From IMG/VR virus record IMGVR_UViG_2703718822_000009: a DNA stretch of 33,525 nt; one strand, given 5' to 3'. Both the position numbers and the translations under genes were made by a program. The first letter of the stretch is position 1; the number at the start of each line of letters is the position of its first letter. Below, one piece after another: positions 1,063 to 8,836 of this stretch. The stretch comes from a virus (Duplodnaviria > Heunggongvirae > Uroviricota > Caudoviricetes). The notes beneath the pieces are model-generated. The model saw nothing but the letters and a program-made list of their open reading frames with translations. It was not told the origin of the DNA and did not search any database.

Positions 1063-1356
1063 TTAACCAGTCTTCTTGCCGGAGTGGGATGATTCCGCTT
1101 CGCTTTGCCCAATGTGTGCGAGAGCCGGTACCACCTGCCCGGCCTTTGGTTCGACCTCATCGAACAAAAACCAGTCACGGTATTTAGAAAATCTAGGATG
1201 CTTGAAAAGCTTGATGGTGATCTCAAGGCCAGGAAGGTTACGACCATACTCATAACTGGTCAGAGCAGAATAAGAAATTCCAATCATATCAGCGAATTCC
1301 CGCTGAGTGAGATCTTCAGATTTACGCATGACGCGAATTTTTTGAGGAATATCCAT
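1063..1356 (-). CDS. Immunity repressor, P2 C-like short HTH repressor
   Basis: ORF 1063..1455(-) trimmed to the internal ATG (MDIPQKIRVMRKSEDLTQREFADMIGISYSALTSYEYGR...) preceded by GGAG. About 97 aa, HTH in the N-terminal half, divergent from a cox-like gene; position and size match P2 C. Confidence 0.75.
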   Translation of the reverse strand: MDIPQKIRVMRKSEDLTQREFADMIGISYSALTSYEYGRNLPGLEITIKLFKHPRFSKYRDWFLFDEVEPKAGQVVPALAHIGQSEAESSHSGKKTG

Positions 1357-1400
1357 TTGACAAACTCCTACATATGTGTAGATTAACACCACATATGAAC
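1357..1400 (+). promoter_or_regulatory. Putative early promoter (Pe) with direct-repeat operator half-sites
   Basis: TTGACA at 1357-1362, a TAGATT-like -10 near 1379-1385, and direct repeats ACATATG at 1370-1376 and 1392-1398 (about 22 bp apart) flanking the -10, as in the P2 C-operator arrangement. Motif-level only. Confidence 0.4.
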
Positions 1401-1471
1401 AGCAAACAAAATGTTCTAAGTGGTTCCAAATAGTGCCAATTAGAAAAAGCACCAATGGCGGAGGATATCAG

Positions 1472-2210: not shown

Positions 2211-2549
2211 ATGACACAGCGACGCAACTTCCGCACTGGCACAGAACGCCACGCTAACCGTTTCTCAACCAGCGCATCACGCAGCAACTCGCACTACAGC
2301 CTGCAGGAAACGCACGCCACACCTGACGGGCATCTGGTTAAACAAACCGGTAAACACACCTGGCTGATTAATGATGCCGGAATTGTCATACACAGAGGTG
2401 CACGCAACCCGATTACCGGAAATACCTGTTACTCCCTGACTCGCGGAGATGAGCAGTTCGGGCAGGATTTCACCCTGCACGAAGCATTAAGAACGGCAGA
2501 CCGGTTAATCAGCGGTCGCAGTTTTCAGCACCCGGAACATCGCCGCTGA
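2211..2549 (+). CDS. Hypothetical early protein
   Basis: ORF in the early operon; weak RBS; no recognisable motif. Confidence 0.35.
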   Translation: MTQRRNFRTGTERHANRFSTSASRSNSHYSLQETHATPDGHLVKQTGKHTWLINDAGIVIHRGARNPITGNTCYSLTRGDEQFGQDFTLHEALRTADRLISGRSFQHPEHRR

Positions 2550-3012: not shown

Positions 3013-3291
3013 ATGAGCACCAATACACCTACAGAAATAAACAAACTATTTACCGACCCGGCGCATATTGAATTGACGCAAAAAACGCTGACTGAAATAA
3101 CCAATGTACTGGATGAAAGAATATCAGAAATAGATAAAGACAAGCATTTTGCCACCTACATGGCCCTGCAAATGCAAAGCATGGCAATGGTGACAGCAAA
3201 ACAGACCATCAGTGAACTCTATATGAAAAACCTGCGCCTCGAGCGCGAACTGGCAGAACTCCGGGCACAGTCCGGCCAGTTTTCAGCGTGA
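3013..3291 (+). CDS. Hypothetical early protein
   Basis: ORF with GGAG RBS; predicted coiled-coil-like C-terminus. Confidence 0.5.
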   Translation: MSTNTPTEINKLFTDPAHIELTQKTLTEITNVLDERISEIDKDKHFATYMALQMQSMAMVTAKQTISELYMKNLRLERELAELRAQSGQFSA

Positions 3292-3554: not shown

Positions 3555-3763
3555 TCAGCAAGTACACCACCAACGCACGTAAACCCGGTAAAGACGCACG
3601 CCACCACATCGCCGTACTCCGCAATCTGTTACTGGAGGAAATCGACGACTTCACGGCGACGCTGAGCGGTCCGGGCGCACCAGTAACACCAGGTGAGATC
3701 CACCGGGACCTTAAACGCCGTATTGAAAACGCCATTGATTACACCCTGAACCCGACCGAATAA
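3551..3763 (+). CDS. Hypothetical early protein
   Basis: ORF 3512..3763 trimmed to the ATG at 3551, which overlaps the upstream stop (ATGA). Confidence 0.45.
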   Translation: MISKYTTNARKPGKDARHHIAVLRNLLLEEIDDFTATLSGPGAPVTPGEIHRDLKRRIENAIDYTLNPTE

Positions 3764-3789
3764 CCGGAACAGTAACGGAGGTTATCGCG

Positions 3790-4344
3790 ATGAGACTTAC
3801 ACCAATGGGAACGCCAAGCAAAGCTCCGGCACATGTAAAGCCGTGGACACAACAGGAAGATCGGTTACTCATCTCGCTTTATCAGGAACACAACACACAT
3901 CAGTTCGCCGAACGAATTCAGCGAACCCGTAAAGCAGTTATGCACCGGATTCGTTTTTTACGTAATCGTGGGCTGATTGGCCGCAAGAGAAAAGCACCAC
4001 TGAGTACAGAAGCCATAGCCTTTCTTATTAAAAACCGTCATGTAAAAACCGCACAGGAAATGGCTCTGGAAGTGGGATGCAGTGAGTGCACAGTGAGGTA
4101 CACACTGCGTAAACGGGGTTACAACCTGAAAAAATGCGGTGAGAACCACCATTGCGCCAGATACAGCGATCATCTGGTTGAGCTGGTCACGGAGCTACGC
4201 GACATACACAACATGACGTTCTGCATGATCGCTGAACACATCAACAGCACGATACAGATGCACATTAACGACGATGCGGCGTTTCATCTCTACCACCGCC
4301 GCACCGCAACTGACGCAGTGCTCTGTGAACTGTTACCGGACTGA
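3790..4344 (+). CDS. Putative DNA-binding protein with three HTH-like repeats
   Basis: ATG with GGAGG RBS. Three internally similar ~40 aa segments with helix-turn-helix character (WTQQEDRLLISLYQ..., STEAIAFLIKNRHVKTAQEMALEVG..., YSDHLVELVTELRD...). Confidence 0.55.
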   Translation: MRLTPMGTPSKAPAHVKPWTQQEDRLLISLYQEHNTHQFAERIQRTRKAVMHRIRFLRNRGLIGRKRKAPLSTEAIAFLIKNRHVKTAQEMALEVGCSECTVRYTLRKRGYNLKKCGENHHCARYSDHLVELVTELRDIHNMTFCMIAEHINSTIQMHINDDAAFHLYHRRTATDAVLCELLPD

Positions 4345-4465
4345 GTGATCATCATGCACACACAAAAAAACCGCTTGCCAGCGTTCGCCTGGTCGGGTTA
4401 CAGTTTTCCCGCACCTCATAAAACGGGTGCCGGGATTGCAACCCCCGCTGACTACACAAGCGCAC

Positions 4466-4487
4466 AACCGCGCCAGCGGTTTTTTTG
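4466..4487 (+). terminator. Putative intrinsic terminator inside the early-operon gap
   Basis: Stem aaccgc / gcggtt with a 4-nt loop, followed by a T-run (4482-4487), nested in a longer cgcacaa / ttgtgcg helix. Confidence 0.45.
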
Positions 4488-4664
4488 TGCGTACCGCATC
4501 GTCACATCTTTTTCGCGTCAGAATTATGGTGGGGCGTACAGGGCCGACTTCGGTCGGGCCGGGGTCTTGTGTAGCCGGTGGTTGCAACCCTGTACGTCTC
4601 ACCACCCAGAATTGCAACCTCTGGATGGTGAGTTTTCAAAACTTACTACACAAGAGGCCACACC

Positions 4665-4892
4665 ATGGCAAACCGCAAGCAACAGCGCGCCCGCGCTGAG
4701 CGTCTTCACATCCGCACTGAAATCAACCGCAGACTCCATCGGGCTGCATCTGTCACCTTCATCATGCAGTCAAACGCATTACACCGACTTAACGATGGTA
4801 TCGCTGCCGGGTATTACGCCGCCGTCTTCAGCTACCTGGCGGATGACCTGGCAGAACTGCAGGACCTTATCAACCAGCAACACCACCACTAA
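4665..4892 (+). CDS. Hypothetical protein
   Basis: ORF with AAGAGG RBS; basic N-terminus, His-rich C-terminus. Confidence 0.5.
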   Translation: MANRKQQRARAERLHIRTEINRRLHRAASVTFIMQSNALHRLNDGIAAGYYAAVFSYLADDLAELQDLINQQHHH

Positions 4893-4960
4893 ACAACATC
4901 CTGAAGCCATCCCGCACCCGTGCGCGGGAGGCTTCCGCACGTCTGTTACCGGAGGTTCTC

Positions 4961-5377
4961 ATGAAGAGCGTTAAGGGACTTTCAGATATTCAGGACTTTT
5001 TTAACTGGATGTGGGCAGTGGATCCCCGGCTGGCTTCCCGCCTGAACGACTGGCACGACTATTACCGCCGCGCCTGTAAACAGGCCACCAGACGCGTCAC
5101 CACATACGGGGATTTCTCCTTCACCGTTGACGACCGTTACCGCGTGGACGTGAAAGGTGATGGTGATGGTTTTGGTTTATTTCACATCAACGGAACCGAC
5201 AGCACCGCCATCAGCTGGTCGTCGTCAGAGATGACGCTTGTGCTGGAAATGACAACGCACAGCGTGGCCGTGAAAGGCATATACACCGCAGAAGACTTTA
5301 TCGGTGAATACCAGCGCCTTCTCGTGCTGTACCGCGCGGCGTTTCAGGCGGCGACTGCCGGGGAGTGCGACGCATGA
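4961..5377 (+). CDS. Hypothetical protein preceding the replication gene
   Basis: ORF with GGAGG RBS; stop overlaps the gpA start (ATGA). Confidence 0.55.
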   Translation: MKSVKGLSDIQDFFNWMWAVDPRLASRLNDWHDYYRRACKQATRRVTTYGDFSFTVDDRYRVDVKGDGDGFGLFHINGTDSTAISWSSSEMTLVLEMTTHSVAVKGIYTAEDFIGEYQRLLVLYRAAFQAATAGECDA

Positions 5378-7893
5378 GTGACCACAATGCACAGCTGGCG
5401 TACCCGTGGAACGCCCCGCTACCGGTTATCGATCCTGAAACGTTCGGCAGAGCGCAGCCAACCGCATTACGCCAGGCCATTCAGAGCTACATCAACGAGG
5501 ATATTCGCACTGACGCCAGACTGGATGAAGAAACCGTCGCCTTCCTGACAAACACAGACGAAGGGAAGCGAATTAATTCGCATCTTTACCACGACGAAGA
5601 GCGTCGGATCAGGCTGGAAAAACTGGCGCGGCACAAACACGAGAATCCGCCAACACTGGTATCTGAAGCCATGGCAGAGCTGCGCGCCCTGCCGCCGTTT
5701 CTTGCCGGTCCGCTCATCCGTGACCTGGCGCGCCTGAGCCGCAAACAGGAGAGCGCACGCCGGGAAGGGCTTAAGAATAACAGCGCATATGCGGCGGATA
5801 ACTTCGTTCGTCACGGGCTGCGTGCCCGCCTGAAACGTATCGCCCGTGTGAATGAACGCTTTGCCACCCCGGCCTTTAAGGCCACCGCCGCGCGCGAACG
5901 GCTGGATGAACTGCTTATGCTGCCACAGCTGAGCCGTGACGAAATCCAGCGCCTTGCCACCCTGACCGCCACCGCGTTTTCCACCGCACTGGAGCGCGCA
6001 TGTGATGAAGTCATCGAAAAGACCAGCAGGGGTGACGATGACCTGCTCACCTGGTTACTGACCTACCAGCCACTGGCACACATGGCGTTAAAACTGGGTA
6101 TCACGCCACCCTGCTGGCCGTCGCTGGAAATCAGGCCCGACCGCCGCACCGACCCCGACCCGGAACGGGTGCCGGGTGCGGTCATGCGCCTTTCCTGTGC
6201 GACATGGTGGAACAGTCAGTTAAGACACCTCCGGGACATCTGGCGTGAAGAACTGTTACGCGCCGCAGGTCTGGTGTCACGTAAGACATCGGTATATATC
6301 AGCCATGAAGCGTTACTGGACTGGCGCGAAAAACGCCAGCGCACCCGCGATTTTCTGAAGGCCTGGGACATCGAGAACGAAGAGGGAGAACGGTTCAGCC
6401 TTGAGGATATCTACTGGGCAGGTCTCTCTAATCCGCGTAACCGCCGTAACGAGATGATGACCTGCGCCCGGGGAATGGAGCAGGTCGCCGAAGCACGCGG
6501 CGACGTGGCGTTTTTCGTCACCGTCACAACCCCTTCCCGTTTTCACAGCGTGAACGATGACGGCAGCCTGAACCCGAAATACTGCGGAGCAACGGTACGC
6601 GATGCCAGTGATTATCTGGTTTACCGCTTTTTCGCCGCCGTCCGCAGGGCCATCGACAAGGCCGGGCTGGGCTGGTACGGCGTGCGCACCGTGGAGCCCC
6701 ACCACGACGGTACACCGCACTGGCACATGCTGGTATTCACCAGCCAGGAAAACGAAGCCCGTATCACTGAAATCATGCGCAACGCCGCCATCAGGGAGGA
6801 CCGCGCAGAGCTGGGTGATGATATCTCCCCGCGTTTTAAATGCGAAAAAATCGACCCGACAAAAGGCACACCGACAAGCTATATCGCGACCTATATCGGT
6901 AAGAATCTGGACGCCAGCGCCTTCATGGGGAATGACCCGAAAACCGGCAAACCTTACGTCGATAAGGAATCAGGCAAAACCATGGCCGAAACCGTGGAGA
7001 ACGCCATCGGCTGGGCAGGCCTTCACCGCATCCACCAGTTCCAGTTCTTCGGTATCCCTCCCCGCCAGGTATGGCGCGAACTCCGCCGTCTTGCCGGGCA
7101 AATGGCCCGTAACCCGGCTGCCCCGCAGCGTCTGGACCATGACGACATTGACGCCATACTGGCCGCCGCCGACGTGGGATGTTTTGCCACCTATATCACC
7201 CGCCAGGGTGGTGTGCTCATTCCCCGCAACACGTACCTGGTCCGCACCGCATACGAAACTGCCGAAGAGGCCAACGACTACGGCGAATTCCCGCAACGCA
7301 TTTACGGCGTCCGCGCCCCGTCACTCGGGGAGCGCTACACCATATGCACCCACCCGGACACCTGGAAACTGGTCAGACGTAAGCCGGAAAACGAAGACCG
7401 CACGGACGAGGGTTTTGACGTTGAGTGCGGCTTTTCCGCACCTTGGACTCGTGGCAATAACTGTCCCCCTGACCAGAATCTGACCATAAACGACCCGCCA
7501 GAAAGGCAGCCGGACGGACGCAGGGAGCAGCGACTTACCCTGCCGGAAGGTGATTTGGGTGAATGGTTAAGGTCACTTACCCCCACAGAGCGAAAACAAC
7601 TCACCAGGCAGCTGAAAAACCCGCCACCTGACACGGAAACCGTGAAAAACGGCGGCATCAGTGCGCCCGCTGGCGGCGTTCGCGTGAGTGTCGCTCTGAC
7701 CGCTGAACCACACATCACCGCACAAATCACCCGCGAGCTTGATGCGCTGGGCGTGCAGCCGCATGAAAGCGCCGTCGTTTCCGTCCGTCACGGTGCCCGC
7801 GTGCGCCTGGCTGACGGGCGCACCGCGTACTGGAATGACAGCACCCGCCGCATTGATATCACCCCCGCACAGAATACGGAGGCGCCACAATGA
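5374..7893 (+). CDS. Rolling-circle replication initiator, P2 gpA-like
   Basis: ORF 5365..7893 (GTG) trimmed to the ATG at 5374 after GGGAG. HUH motif (VEPHHDGTPHWHMLVF) and a paired-tyrosine motif (SYIATYIGKN) typical of the gpA / phiX174 A family. Confidence 0.92.
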   Translation: MSDHNAQLAYPWNAPLPVIDPETFGRAQPTALRQAIQSYINEDIRTDARLDEETVAFLTNTDEGKRINSHLYHDEERRIRLEKLARHKHENPPTLVSEAMAELRALPPFLAGPLIRDLARLSRKQESARREGLKNNSAYAADNFVRHGLRARLKRIARVNERFATPAFKATAARERLDELLMLPQLSRDEIQRLATLTATAFSTALERACDEVIEKTSRGDDDLLTWLLTYQPLAHMALKLGITPPCWPSLEIRPDRRTDPDPERVPGAVMRLSCATWWNSQLRHLRDIWREELLRAAGLVSRKTSVYISHEALLDWREKRQRTRDFLKAWDIENEEGERFSLEDIYWAGLSNPRNRRNEMMTCARGMEQVAEARGDVAFFVTVTTPSRFHSVNDDGSLNPKYCGATVRDASDYLVYRFFAAVRRAIDKAGLGWYGVRTVEPHHDGTPHWHMLVFTSQENEARITEIMRNAAIREDRAELGDDISPRFKCEKIDPTKGTPTSYIATYIGKNLDASAFMGNDPKTGKPYVDKESGKTMAETVENAIGWAGLHRIHQFQFFGIPPRQVWRELRRLAGQMARNPAAPQRLDHDDIDAILAAADVGCFATYITRQGGVLIPRNTYLVRTAYETAEEANDYGEFPQRIYGVRAPSLGERYTICTHPDTWKLVRRKPENEDRTDEGFDVECGFSAPWTRGNNCPPDQNLTINDPPERQPDGRREQRLTLPEGDLGEWLRSLTPTERKQLTRQLKNPPPDTETVKNGGISAPAGGVRVSVALTAEPHITAQITRELDALGVQPHESAVVSVRHGARVRLADGRTAYWNDSTRRIDITPAQNTEAPQ

Positions 7894-8294
7894 CCCGCTT
7901 TTATTGCGCCATGCAGCGCCAGCGTTTTGACGAAATGATGCGCCAGCGCACGCCCTTACTGACCCTGAACAACATTGCCACGGGGCCACAACCGGGCGAT
8001 GAGCTGGAAATCACGGTCGTCAGTCCCGATCGCACCACCACGGCCATCATCACCGACATACTCAACGGACGACCGGACAGCACCAACCGCAGCTGGCTTG
8101 TCGCCGTTCGTCCGCGCCGTCCGCCCGGAGAGCCGGAGCCGCTCACGCCTGCCGGAAAAATCATGCGGCAGTACCACGAAGAGCAGGCACACAAACACAA
8201 CGCAGAACTGACCAGAACACTGGCATCGATTAACCGCAAAGCGGCAATTGCCCGCTATGTGCATTCAGCCGCTGGCAGACAATCACGCAGGTAA
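7890..8294 (+). CDS. Hypothetical protein after gpA
   Basis: ATG overlaps the gpA stop (ATGA); GGAGG RBS; no recognisable motif. Confidence 0.5.
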   Translation: MTRFYCAMQRQRFDEMMRQRTPLLTLNNIATGPQPGDELEITVVSPDRTTTAIITDILNGRPDSTNRSWLVAVRPRRPPGEPEPLTPAGKIMRQYHEEQAHKHNAELTRTLASINRKAAIARYVHSAAGRQSRR

Positions 8295-8342
8295 ACAAAG
8301 ACCATGAACATAACCAGAAACAGCCAACTAAAGGAGCGCACC

Positions 8343-8513
8343 ATGAACAGCACCAGGAGGATCAGCGACAGAGAGCTTACGAAAATGATTGAGTCGGCGC
8401 AGCAGCTGCTTTCACGACAAAACCCGGTCGTGGAAGAAACATGGTGGGAGAATTTACTGGCAGCACTGACCGAACTCCGGGAACGCCGGAACAACGAAGG
8501 AGCCGCCAAATGA
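8343..8513 (+). CDS. Hypothetical small protein
   Basis: ORF 8304..8513 trimmed to the ATG at 8343, preceded by AAGGAG. Confidence 0.4.
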   Translation: MNSTRRISDRELTKMIESAQQLLSRQNPVVEETWWENLLAALTELRERRNNEGAAK

Positions 8514-8836
8514 AGACCCCAGGAATGACCGGAAAGGAAATCATTTTACGCTACCTGGAAACGCACGCACGTTTCAGCGCCCCAGAACTGGTAGAAAAAC
8601 TGGGCGTGAAAAGAACCGTCATTAATCAGGCCGCCGGAAAAATGGTACGGGAAGGGTTGCTGGTTGTGGACGGGTACACGGACAAGATAACGCATTACCG
8701 GAAGCCAACGGAAAAGGAACGACAGGAACTGGCGCAACGGGCTGAACAGCAGCAGGAAAAATCAGTCATCGAAGCCTGCAAGCGCAGCGAAATCATGAAG
8801 CGAATTCTGTTTATCTACGGCGCTGCATTCCGTTAA
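8510..8836 (+). CDS. Putative winged-helix DNA-binding protein
   Basis: ORF 8441..8836 trimmed to the ATG at 8510, which overlaps the upstream stop. EIILRYLETHARFSAPELVEKLGVKRTVINQAAGKMVREGLLVV resembles a MarR/winged-HTH fold (pattern-level). Confidence 0.5.
   Translation: MKTPGMTGKEIILRYLETHARFSAPELVEKLGVKRTVINQAAGKMVREGLLVVDGYTDKITHYRKPTEKERQELAQRAEQQQEKSVIEACKRSEIMKRILFIYGAAFR

Follow-up and report, generated by a model that had tools for sequence, protein, structure and literature searches.

A 320-bp gap in the early operon of a P88-type Escherichia coli prophage very probably holds an IsrK-C4 two-RNA immunity module

The DNA considered here, a stretch of 33,525 nucleotides called the window below, comes from a prophage of Escherichia coli, a complete P2-like phage belonging to the P88/Xuanwuvirus group, and over positions 3700-5400 it shares 99.3% identity with the chromosome of E. 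coli N51. Between an ORF at 3790-4344, which codes for a SANT/Myb-like DNA-binding (HTH) protein, and the next ORF, at 4665-4892, the early operon contains a non-coding gap of 320 bp, as a preliminary description of the sequence had reported. Over its full 320 bp, the gap shares 84-86% identity with the corresponding regions of phages P88, P884B11 and Citrobacter phage Shae_phiSM, and 87-89% over positions 4405-4670.

The ORF that follows the gap has a Shine-Dalgarno (SD) sequence of its own, AAGAGG (4652-4657), located 7 nt ahead of the ATG at 4665. Its 75-aa product, named 'derepression protein' in RefSeq, matches phrog_3688 (E 3e-32) and is 32% identical to the epsilon protein of P4 over 50 aa in BLASTP (E 6e-8); its match to the Pfam family PF25738 (Derepression protein family) is marginal, with 27.6 bits for a cut-off of 27.0, i.e., 0.6 bits over. 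It is regarded here as a putative antirepressor. Farther downstream are orf138 and the gene of the replication endonuclease gpA, whose product is recognized by the Pfam model Phage_GPA (E 9.5e-106), and the downstream genes match phrog_91 and phrog_3237. The spacing of the genes suggests that orf138 and gpA probably belong to the same transcription unit as the derepression ORF. A search of NCBIfam with the 75-aa and 138-aa proteins returned no match.

The gap harbors members of two curated families of phage RNAs, both on the + strand. The isrK model (RF01394) matches positions 4411-4486 over its entire length (model positions 1-77 of 77) with 59.6 bits, for a gathering score of 50, and the C4 model (RF01695) matches positions 4522-4609 (model positions 1-87 of 87) with 78.0 bits, for a gathering score of 45; the spacer between them is 35 nt long. 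That the gap might encode a small RNA had been proposed, which is correct as regards the RNA, except that there are two of them rather than one, and that both belong to catalogued families. In GenBank record LC710661, the same pair is annotated as ncRNA features labeled 'isrK Hfq binding RNA' and 'C4 antisense RNA'. We consider it highly probable (roughly 0.88) that the gap corresponds to two catalogued phage small-RNA genes, one IsrK/seqA-like and the other C4/CI-like, which together form a two-RNA 'IsrK-C4' immunity module (Table 1).

The adjacency of isrK and C4 was catalogued in 2010 as the 'c4-a1b1' motif (PMC2864571), and the IsrK-C4 system has been described for P4, P1, P7, and N15, with a mention of Salmonella prophages as well (PMC3632133). 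The module goes by other names in these systems, being called seqA/CI in P4, immI c4 in P1/P7, CA RNA in N15, and isrK/STnc1160 in Gifsy-1. The Rfam model of the c4-a1b1 motif (RF03163) has no match in positions 4200-4800 at E<=10, and its match in P4 is weak as well, with a score of 44.1 for a gathering score of 46.7. The window does contain the a1 and b1 sites, and the missing match reflects the narrowness of the model, not an absence of the sites.

Upstream of isrK, a consensus scan has revealed a putative sigma-70-like promoter, from which transcription is predicted to start at about position 4411, the first base of the isrK model. Although the sequences have diverged, both hexamers keep the same distance ahead of isrK in the P88 group, the lambdoid phages, N15, and the P1-like locus. 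At the other end of isrK, the terminator scan identified the stem AACCGC/GCGGTT (4466-4481) with a T run behind it. This terminator had been described as nested in a longer helix. The stem and the T run are indeed present, whereas the outer helix (4445-4450 / 4474-4479), seen in the single-sequence minimum free energy (MFE) fold, is an alternative to the Rfam terminator stem and is absent from the lambdoid members of the family.

Table 1. Features of the gap and of the genes downstream of it, in window coordinates.
Feature	Position	Strand	Basis
Putative isrK promoter, sigma-70-like: -35 TTGCCA (4375-4380), 18-nt spacer, -10 TACAGT (4399-4404)	4375-4404	+	Consensus scan
IsrK / P4-seqA-like RNA: 5' hairpin 4411-4430; hairpin 2 with a1 in its loop; single-stranded b1; intrinsic terminator 4466-4481 and U run	4411-4488	+	Rfam, RNAalifold, terminator scan
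a1 target/decoy site, UUGCAACC, loop of IsrK hairpin 2	4436-4443	+	Exact complement of C4 4580-4587
b1 target/decoy site, CUACACAAG	4452-4460	+	Exact complement of C4 loop 4566-4574
C4 / P4-CI-like antisense RNA: closing stem 4527-4543 / 4588-4604; hairpin 1 4544-4557, UUCG loop; hairpin 2 4558-4562 / 4575-4579	4522-4609	+	Rfam, covariation, fold z-score
b' recognition sequence, UCUUGUGUAG, 12-nt loop of C4 hairpin 2	4565-4574	+	Complementary to b1 (9 nt) and b2 (10 nt)
a' recognition sequence, GGUUGCAA, single-stranded joint of C4; core of the palindrome	4580-4587	+	Complementary to a1 and a2 (8 nt)
a2 target site, UUGCAACC, mRNA leader	4612-4619	+	Motif scan, complementarity to a'
UGGUGAG, complementary to the 3' strand of the C4 closing stem (4598-4604)	4626-4632	+	Sequence comparison
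b2 target site, CUACACAAGA, overlapping the SD AAGAGG (4652-4657) of the ORF at 4665	4646-4655	+	Complementarity to b'
Presumed regulated gene: 75-aa P4-epsilon-like 'derepression protein', putative antirepressor	4665-4892	+	Pfam, PHROG, BLASTP, RefSeq name, codon periodicity
orf138 (unknown function), 4961-5377, and gpA replication endonuclease, 5365-7893	4961-7893	+	Pfam, PHROG

Twenty loci were compared, namely the window and 19 loci from public records, and P4 was added afterwards. The 19 loci, for which BLAST matches in a phage collection served as a source, represent four more phages or prophages of the P88 group, 11 lambdoid/Stx phages, two Uetakevirus phages, N15, and the P1-like RCS47. 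A search for relatives with the 75-aa protein in genome contigs yielded two loci, which were used but were too few to provide diversity, and the 36 stretches found on viral contigs with a degenerate C4 DNA pattern were left out, being mostly unrelated. The isrK gene is followed by C4, and the two are always adjacent, in the 19 loci, where the spacer is 21-44 nt long, and in P4, where it is 107 nt long. An invariant AUG sits at position 5 of C4, which is position 4526 of the window.

The fold of C4 is strongly conserved across this set. Its consensus structure has 27 pairs, and all 540 of the 540 sequence-by-pair cells of the 20 loci are paired, with changes on both sides, i.e., compensatory, in 13 of the 27 pairs. 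None of 500 shuffles attained the observed values, and in a control in which the partners were slid by 1-3 columns pairing fell to 33-48%. The fold of the C4 RNA of the window has a z-score of -5.8. Covariation analysis across related prophages had been put forward as a check on the gap, and the reading as a small RNA holds. The individual elements that had been noticed also have their place in this fold. The hairpin with a UUCG-type loop, which had been placed at 4543-4560, is found at 4544-4557, and the 9-bp long-range stem (4535-4543 / 4588-4596) is real and forms the inner half of the closing stem, which comprises 17 bp. In IsrK, RNAalifold identified five compensatory pairs in hairpin 1 over the 20 loci, and hairpin 2 presents a1 in its loop. 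The single-sequence MFE structure of the window C4, at -50.1 kcal/mol compared with -46.1 kcal/mol for the consensus fold, differs from the latter inside the closing stem, and a' and b' may therefore be partly occluded in the allele of the window.

Two sets of repeated sites connect the two RNAs and the leader of the derepression ORF. The preliminary description had singled out three copies of the TTGCAACC motif, the middle one within a palindrome, and they are found as stated: a scan of all 33.5 kb of the window finds RTTGCAACC at 4435, 4581, and 4611 and nowhere else, the match at 4581 being on both strands owing to the 10-bp palindrome GGTTGCAACC at 4580-4589. This amounts to four matches for 0.83 expected, a number reached by two of 100 shuffles. 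A second triplet, statistically stronger than the first, consists of CTACACAAG at 4452 and 4646 on the + strand and its reverse complement at 4566-4574; these three matches, for 0.12 expected, have no counterpart elsewhere in the window, and none of 100 shuffles reached three. The sites are thus arranged in the order a1-b1 in IsrK, b'-a' in C4, and a2-b2 in the mRNA leader, a layout that has reportedly been established for the immI region of P1/P7. In the window b2 overlaps the ribosome-binding site, and in the other loci it runs into, or directly precedes, the GAGG/AGG SD sequence of the first downstream ORF.

Within C4, the a' and b' sequences vary the most, and they are exactly complementary to the a1, b1, a2, and b2 sites of their own locus, with a1 co-varying with a' in all 20 loci. 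Thus, the a/b alleles are TTGGAAC / CAACCAAAGA in Shae_phiSM and TTTCCAC / GCAACTACAGA in P88. A column-wise count of intermolecular a/b pairs was dropped because the pairing register, taken relative to hairpin 2, is offset by 1-2 nt from one allele class to another and because the MAFFT alignment is wrong at the hypervariable sites; a register-free comparison of cognate and non-cognate pairs was used instead. When all C4 RNAs were compared with all targets, the a2 and b2 sites of the same locus together offered 13-18 nt of exact complement, compared with 8-14 nt for the best non-cognate targets, and the cognate targets ranked best in 20 of 20 loci. Where b1 and b2 of one locus differ by a substitution (L046, L049, L050/L054, L051/L041, and L055 in our numbering of the loci), the difference maintains G·U pairing with C4, which is expected of RNA-RNA pairing and not of a protein operator. 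The predicted energies, which are those of local duplexes only, are -16.3 kcal/mol for b'-b2, -12.2 for a'-a2, -14.3 for b'-b1, and -16.9 for a'-a1. In RNAcofold predictions with the whole C4 and either the leader or IsrK, both molecules stay separately folded, with kissing-type loop contacts being outside the scope of the method. The leader contains a further complementary segment, UGGUGAG, which faces the 3' strand of the C4 closing stem. A complement of this type is found in most loci, with a length of 7-11 nt, and it changes together with the stem (e.g., GCGGTGG, GGTGGTAGC, and GGCGATAGC); it possibly reflects an alternative fold of the unprocessed transcript.

The repeated motif could also be read at the level of DNA, with the TTGCAACC copies serving as operators from which a dimeric DNA-binding protein, such as C, Cox, or the SANT/Myb-HTH protein encoded upstream, would control the early operon. 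The perfect 10-bp palindrome of the middle copy, the confinement of the motif to the gap, and the presence of nearby genes for DNA-binding proteins are compatible with such an array, and a protein could still recognize an asymmetric site that is present in inverted orientation in the DNA. Nevertheless, in 19 of 19 relatives the a site is a different, non-palindromic 7-8-mer (TTGGAAC, TTTCCAC, TTCTCAAC, GTGAGAA), and the palindrome, whose conservation the preliminary description had considered decisive, is therefore an accident of the window allele. In every case the outer two copies are matched by a middle copy in reverse complement, placed in the single-stranded joint of an RNA fold that covariation supports, and the same three-copy, middle-inverted pattern is repeated by the unrelated b sequence. 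Furthermore, the divergence of the target copies is restricted to G·U-compatible transitions, and the proteins encoded beside the module differ completely from one locus to another (epsilon-like, Rha/Ant, or Icd-like) while the architecture of the sites is constant. An array of protein operators was thus rejected, the site being hypervariable and obeying the rules of RNA pairing, G·U pairs included, and we give it next to no credence.

Quite improbable, too, is that the gap encodes a small protein, in the + frame that contains the invariant AUG (ORF 4427-4699) and that resembles orf45 of Gifsy-1 and the Pfam 'Ash' family, and that control is exerted by translational coupling rather than by an antisense RNA. 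This ORF ends 35 nt inside the derepression gene and yields 21.7 bits with PF10554 (Phage_ASH), which is below the cut-off of 26; its frame is free of stop codons across isrK and C4 in 14 of 19 loci, and translation of orf45 has been found necessary for that of anrP (Hershko-Shalev et al., PMC4825925). In contrast, codon periodicity, which had been suggested as the hallmark of a conserved protein gene at this place, was looked for and is absent: the column entropies of C4 by codon position are 0.76/0.74/0.76 in the 20 loci, and those of the isrK-C4 segment in the P88 group are 0.17/0.21/0.20, compared with 0.32/0.29/0.63 for the adjacent derepression ORF used as a control. Stop codons break the frame in 3 of 20 loci, which are those with changes in loop length, the variation is explained entirely by base-pair covariation, and the derepression ORF is equipped with an SD and an ATG of its own. 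A hidden 'Ash'- or orf45-like gene was rejected on the grounds of this lack of periodicity and of the interrupted frame. A dual role may be envisaged, with limited ribosome traffic through the leader ORF, as for orf45 in Gifsy-1 (PMC4825925). Finally, the gap might do no more than partition the early operon by means of an intrinsic terminator or attenuator, with no trans-acting RNA involved. A clear terminator (4466-4488) does separate the upstream early genes from the replication genes, but a terminator leaves unexplained the 88-nt C4 with its 13 compensatory pairs, the four co-varying target sites, and the conserved position of the promoter, which makes this possibility very unlikely.

How an IsrK-C4 module would operate in this phage can be proposed from its characterized relatives. 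In P4 and P1, the CI and c4 antisense RNAs, respectively, block translation of the first downstream ORF, which leads to premature termination, and in P1 the 5' end of C4 is generated by RNase P. By analogy, the promoter upstream of isrK would be active in the lysogen, and most transcripts would stop at the terminator, giving rise to an IsrK RNA of about 76 nt that carries a1 and b1. Those transcripts that read through would contain C4, which would be excised from them and, with its b' and a' sequences exposed, would pair with b2 and a2 in the leader of the next gene. As b2 overlaps the Shine-Dalgarno sequence, this pairing is predicted to block translation of the epsilon-like derepression ORF, a putative antirepressor gene, and polarity or Rho-dependent termination would probably also lower the expression of orf138 and gpA, an effect that for gpA is purely conjectural. 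Acting in cis or in trans, the a1 and b1 sites of IsrK would be competitors for C4 and might thereby set the threshold of derepression, and the hypervariable a and b sequences would define the specificity of immunity. An attenuator or anti-terminator upstream of the replication genes, as had been proposed at the outset, would in that case be right in spirit. This scheme is drawn from P1, P4, N15, and Gifsy-1 and from published work (PMC3632133; PMC4825925; PMC12197685), including the report that c4 blocks the ribosome-binding site of ant (PMC12197685). The direction and the details of control may differ between members of the family, since in the model proposed for Gifsy-1 IsrK activates through orf45, which overlaps the C4-like RNA.

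The gap is a real feature of an already known kind; in P88-type phages the module is a routine member of its family, and it is common. Homologues covering at least 80% of the module are present in 643 of 5426 complete E. coli genomes (~12%), and the exact a/b allele of the window was found in only one of the 5426, that of strain N51, and on one viral contig of the same phage lineage. In the literature library that was searched, no paper describing the IsrK-C4 module in P88-type P2-like phages was found. Both the gap and its homologues should be labeled as isrK and C4 ncRNA genes; current annotations either leave these places empty or fill them with spurious ORFs ('hypothetical protein', 'ash family protein', or Rha/antirepressor genes that are too long).

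The module suggests that, besides the C repressor (ORF 1063-1455, minus strand), an antisense RNA and an epsilon-like antirepressor gate induction and replication in P88-type P2-like prophages, and such gating would link P2-like helper phages to the immunity logic of satellite P4. Going further, we put forward as a speculation, with the odds against it, that a P4-type RNA switch is joined directly to the epsilon-type antirepressor of a P88/Xuanwuvirus-type phage itself and gates its gpA operon, thus providing a second, RNA-based layer of immunity. If so, phages would fall into many heteroimmunity groups according to their hypervariable a/b alleles, which could mediate conflicts between helper and satellite or between phages. 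P2-like phages of the P88/Xuanwuvirus type are potential helpers of P4-like satellites. The gating suggested by the module represents a modest extension of well-studied systems and involves no new mechanism.

Among those systems, the isrK - orf45/STnc1160 - anrP region of Gifsy-1 has been studied for the read-through of isrK, the processing to STnc1160, and the control of the antirepressor AnrP (Hershko-Shalev et al., 2016, PMC4825925), and its authors have likened IsrK to seqA and STnc1160 to CI of P4 (PMC4825925). The window resembles it in the succession of an isrK promoter, a terminator, which is leaky in Gifsy-1, an RNA downstream, which in Gifsy-1 is processed and stable, and then an antirepressor gene, putative in the window. 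In the Gifsy-1 model, the short IsrK is a trans activator of the translation of orf45 and anrP, and indirectly of the antiterminator AntQ (PMC4825925), whereas in the window no antQ-like gene adjoins the module and the context is not lambdoid.

In N15, both isrK (62.4 bits) and C4 (78.8 bits) are recognized by the models, and their co-varying sites are a=TTCTCAAC and b=ACAAGAAG. Unlike the window, N15 is a linear plasmid prophage, and different genes, gp32-gp30, lie downstream of the module; its anti-immunity locus (CA RNA / antA-C) is said to have been described in 1999. The immI region of P1/P7 (c4 - icd - ant1/2) has the RNA family and the layout in common with the window, and the c4 RNA was reportedly the subject of studies in 1990, 1992, and 1995. 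Its regulated product is an antirepressor, and specificity is determined by a' and b', as illustrated by the heteroimmunity between P1 and P7. In the P1-like RCS47, isrK is at 1501-1579, C4 at 1624-1711, and ant at 1984, with a=TTGAGAC and b=GTCAAAGG. P1 differs from the window in that its antirepressor belongs to the Ant family rather than being epsilon-like, its prophage is a plasmid, and icd is the first ORF after b2.

The immunity region of P4 has the order seqA - cI/CI RNA [seqB] - seqC, upstream of kil/eta, epsilon, orf151, and alpha. The C4 model matches the cI RNA gene with 74.9 bits and the isrK model the seqA region with 60.8 bits, the sites follow each other in the same a1-b1 / b'-a' / a2-b2 order, and b2 abuts the SD. 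The two modules differ in their isrK-C4 spacers (107 nt in P4 and 35 nt in the window) and in their a/b specificities, GTGAGAA/TTCACAGG in P4 (b also as TTCACAGGA) compared with TTGCAACC/CTACACAAG in the window. In P4, an Icd/Kil-like ORF (MATTLTP...) comes after b2, with epsilon about 245 nt further, whereas in the window the epsilon-like ORF directly follows b2; a relationship between P4 orf151 and the orf138 of the window is undetectable. P4 is a satellite whose replication gene alpha codes for a primase-helicase, whereas the window represents a complete P2-like phage of the Xuanwuvirus/P88 type, with gpA. In both, a derepression gene of the epsilon family and then a replication gene are found downstream of the module, and it is to the immunity-derepression region of P4 that the module of the window is closest in gene content.

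Most of the Pfam family PF10554, named 'Ash protein family', seems to be the isrK-C4-a2/b2 RNA module in translated form. Its profile recognizes the obsolete 'cI gene product' of P4, which lies over the C4 RNA gene, with 59.7 bits, and an over-long Stx-phage ORF with 54.8 bits over residues 117-213, which correspond exactly to the segment comprising isrK, C4 and the leader. No codon periodicity was seen in the Ash frame, and the family is therefore probably spurious, or represents at best a leader peptide.

In lambdoid and Stx phages, annotated genes of 380 aa, named 'antirepressor / peptidase / transcriptional regulator / Rha', form one open frame across isrK, its terminator and C4; curiously, in these loci that frame stays in phase with the gene that follows. 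Their Rha domain begins only 3' of b2, past a Shine-Dalgarno sequence and ATG of its own (ATG at 1752 in the Stx-phage locus L042), and hence the true Rha-type protein is probably about 180 aa long. For the 62-aa protein annotated on the minus strand of P88, Pfam gives no match, and the annotation is probably spurious. The sRNA-Xcc1 match in Ss-VASD, which follows the C4 RNA at a distance of about 840 nt and closely precedes an antitermination gene, is unrelated to the isrK-C4 finding.

Annotated features at the window and comparison loci
Feature	Locus	Coordinates	Strand	Annotation
Ash-matching ORF	P4 (L057)	8168-8584	-	Pfam PF10554; spans C4 RNA gene
Ash-matching ORF	Stx phage (L042)	1146-2297	+	Pfam PF10554
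Ash-like ORF	window	4427-4699	+	Pfam PF10554, 21.7 bits
sRNA-Xcc1	Shigella phage Ss-VASD (L051)	2224-2307		Rfam RF02221, 79.6 bits
62-aa 'hypothetical protein'	P88 (L002)	3056-3244	-	RefSeq; directly over isrK and C4
380-aa gene	L042	1146-2297
380-aa gene	L056	841-1992
380-aa gene	L047	841-1986
380-aa gene	L048	841-1989
380-aa gene	L050	847-2004

A third co-varying complementarity links CUCACCA (4598-4604 in the window), which forms the 3' side of the closing stem in C4, to UGGUGAG (4626-4632), which lies between a2 and b2 and has equivalents in other loci; both partners change jointly in the P1-like, N15, P4 and Ss-VASD loci. In the unprocessed transcript, this pairing could form an alternative hairpin with a2 in its loop. 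Within IsrK, the preliminary description had placed the terminator inside a longer helix; the strands of that helix, CCGCUG (4445-4450) and CAGCGG (4474-4479), can pair in place of the Rfam terminator stem. The P88 group and the Ss-VASD/F004 loci share this pairing, and most lambdoid members lack it.

The a' site of the window C4 (4522-4609) is self-complementary (GGUUGCAACC), a property found in none of the 19 other alleles. For this reason, the inner part of the single-sequence minimum-free-energy fold (-50.1 kcal/mol) differs from that of the family consensus fold (-46.1 kcal/mol), and the RNA could in principle dimerize via a'.

The a and b alleles are reassorted across phage types, as seen with window segment 4405-4670 and the E. 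coli genome collection. The a allele is identical and b different between P88 and the comparison locus L004, between Shae_phiSM and phiP27, and between locus L003 and N15. Among 5426 complete E. coli genomes, one carries the window combination of a' and b'; this suggests that immunity specificity is under diversifying selection.
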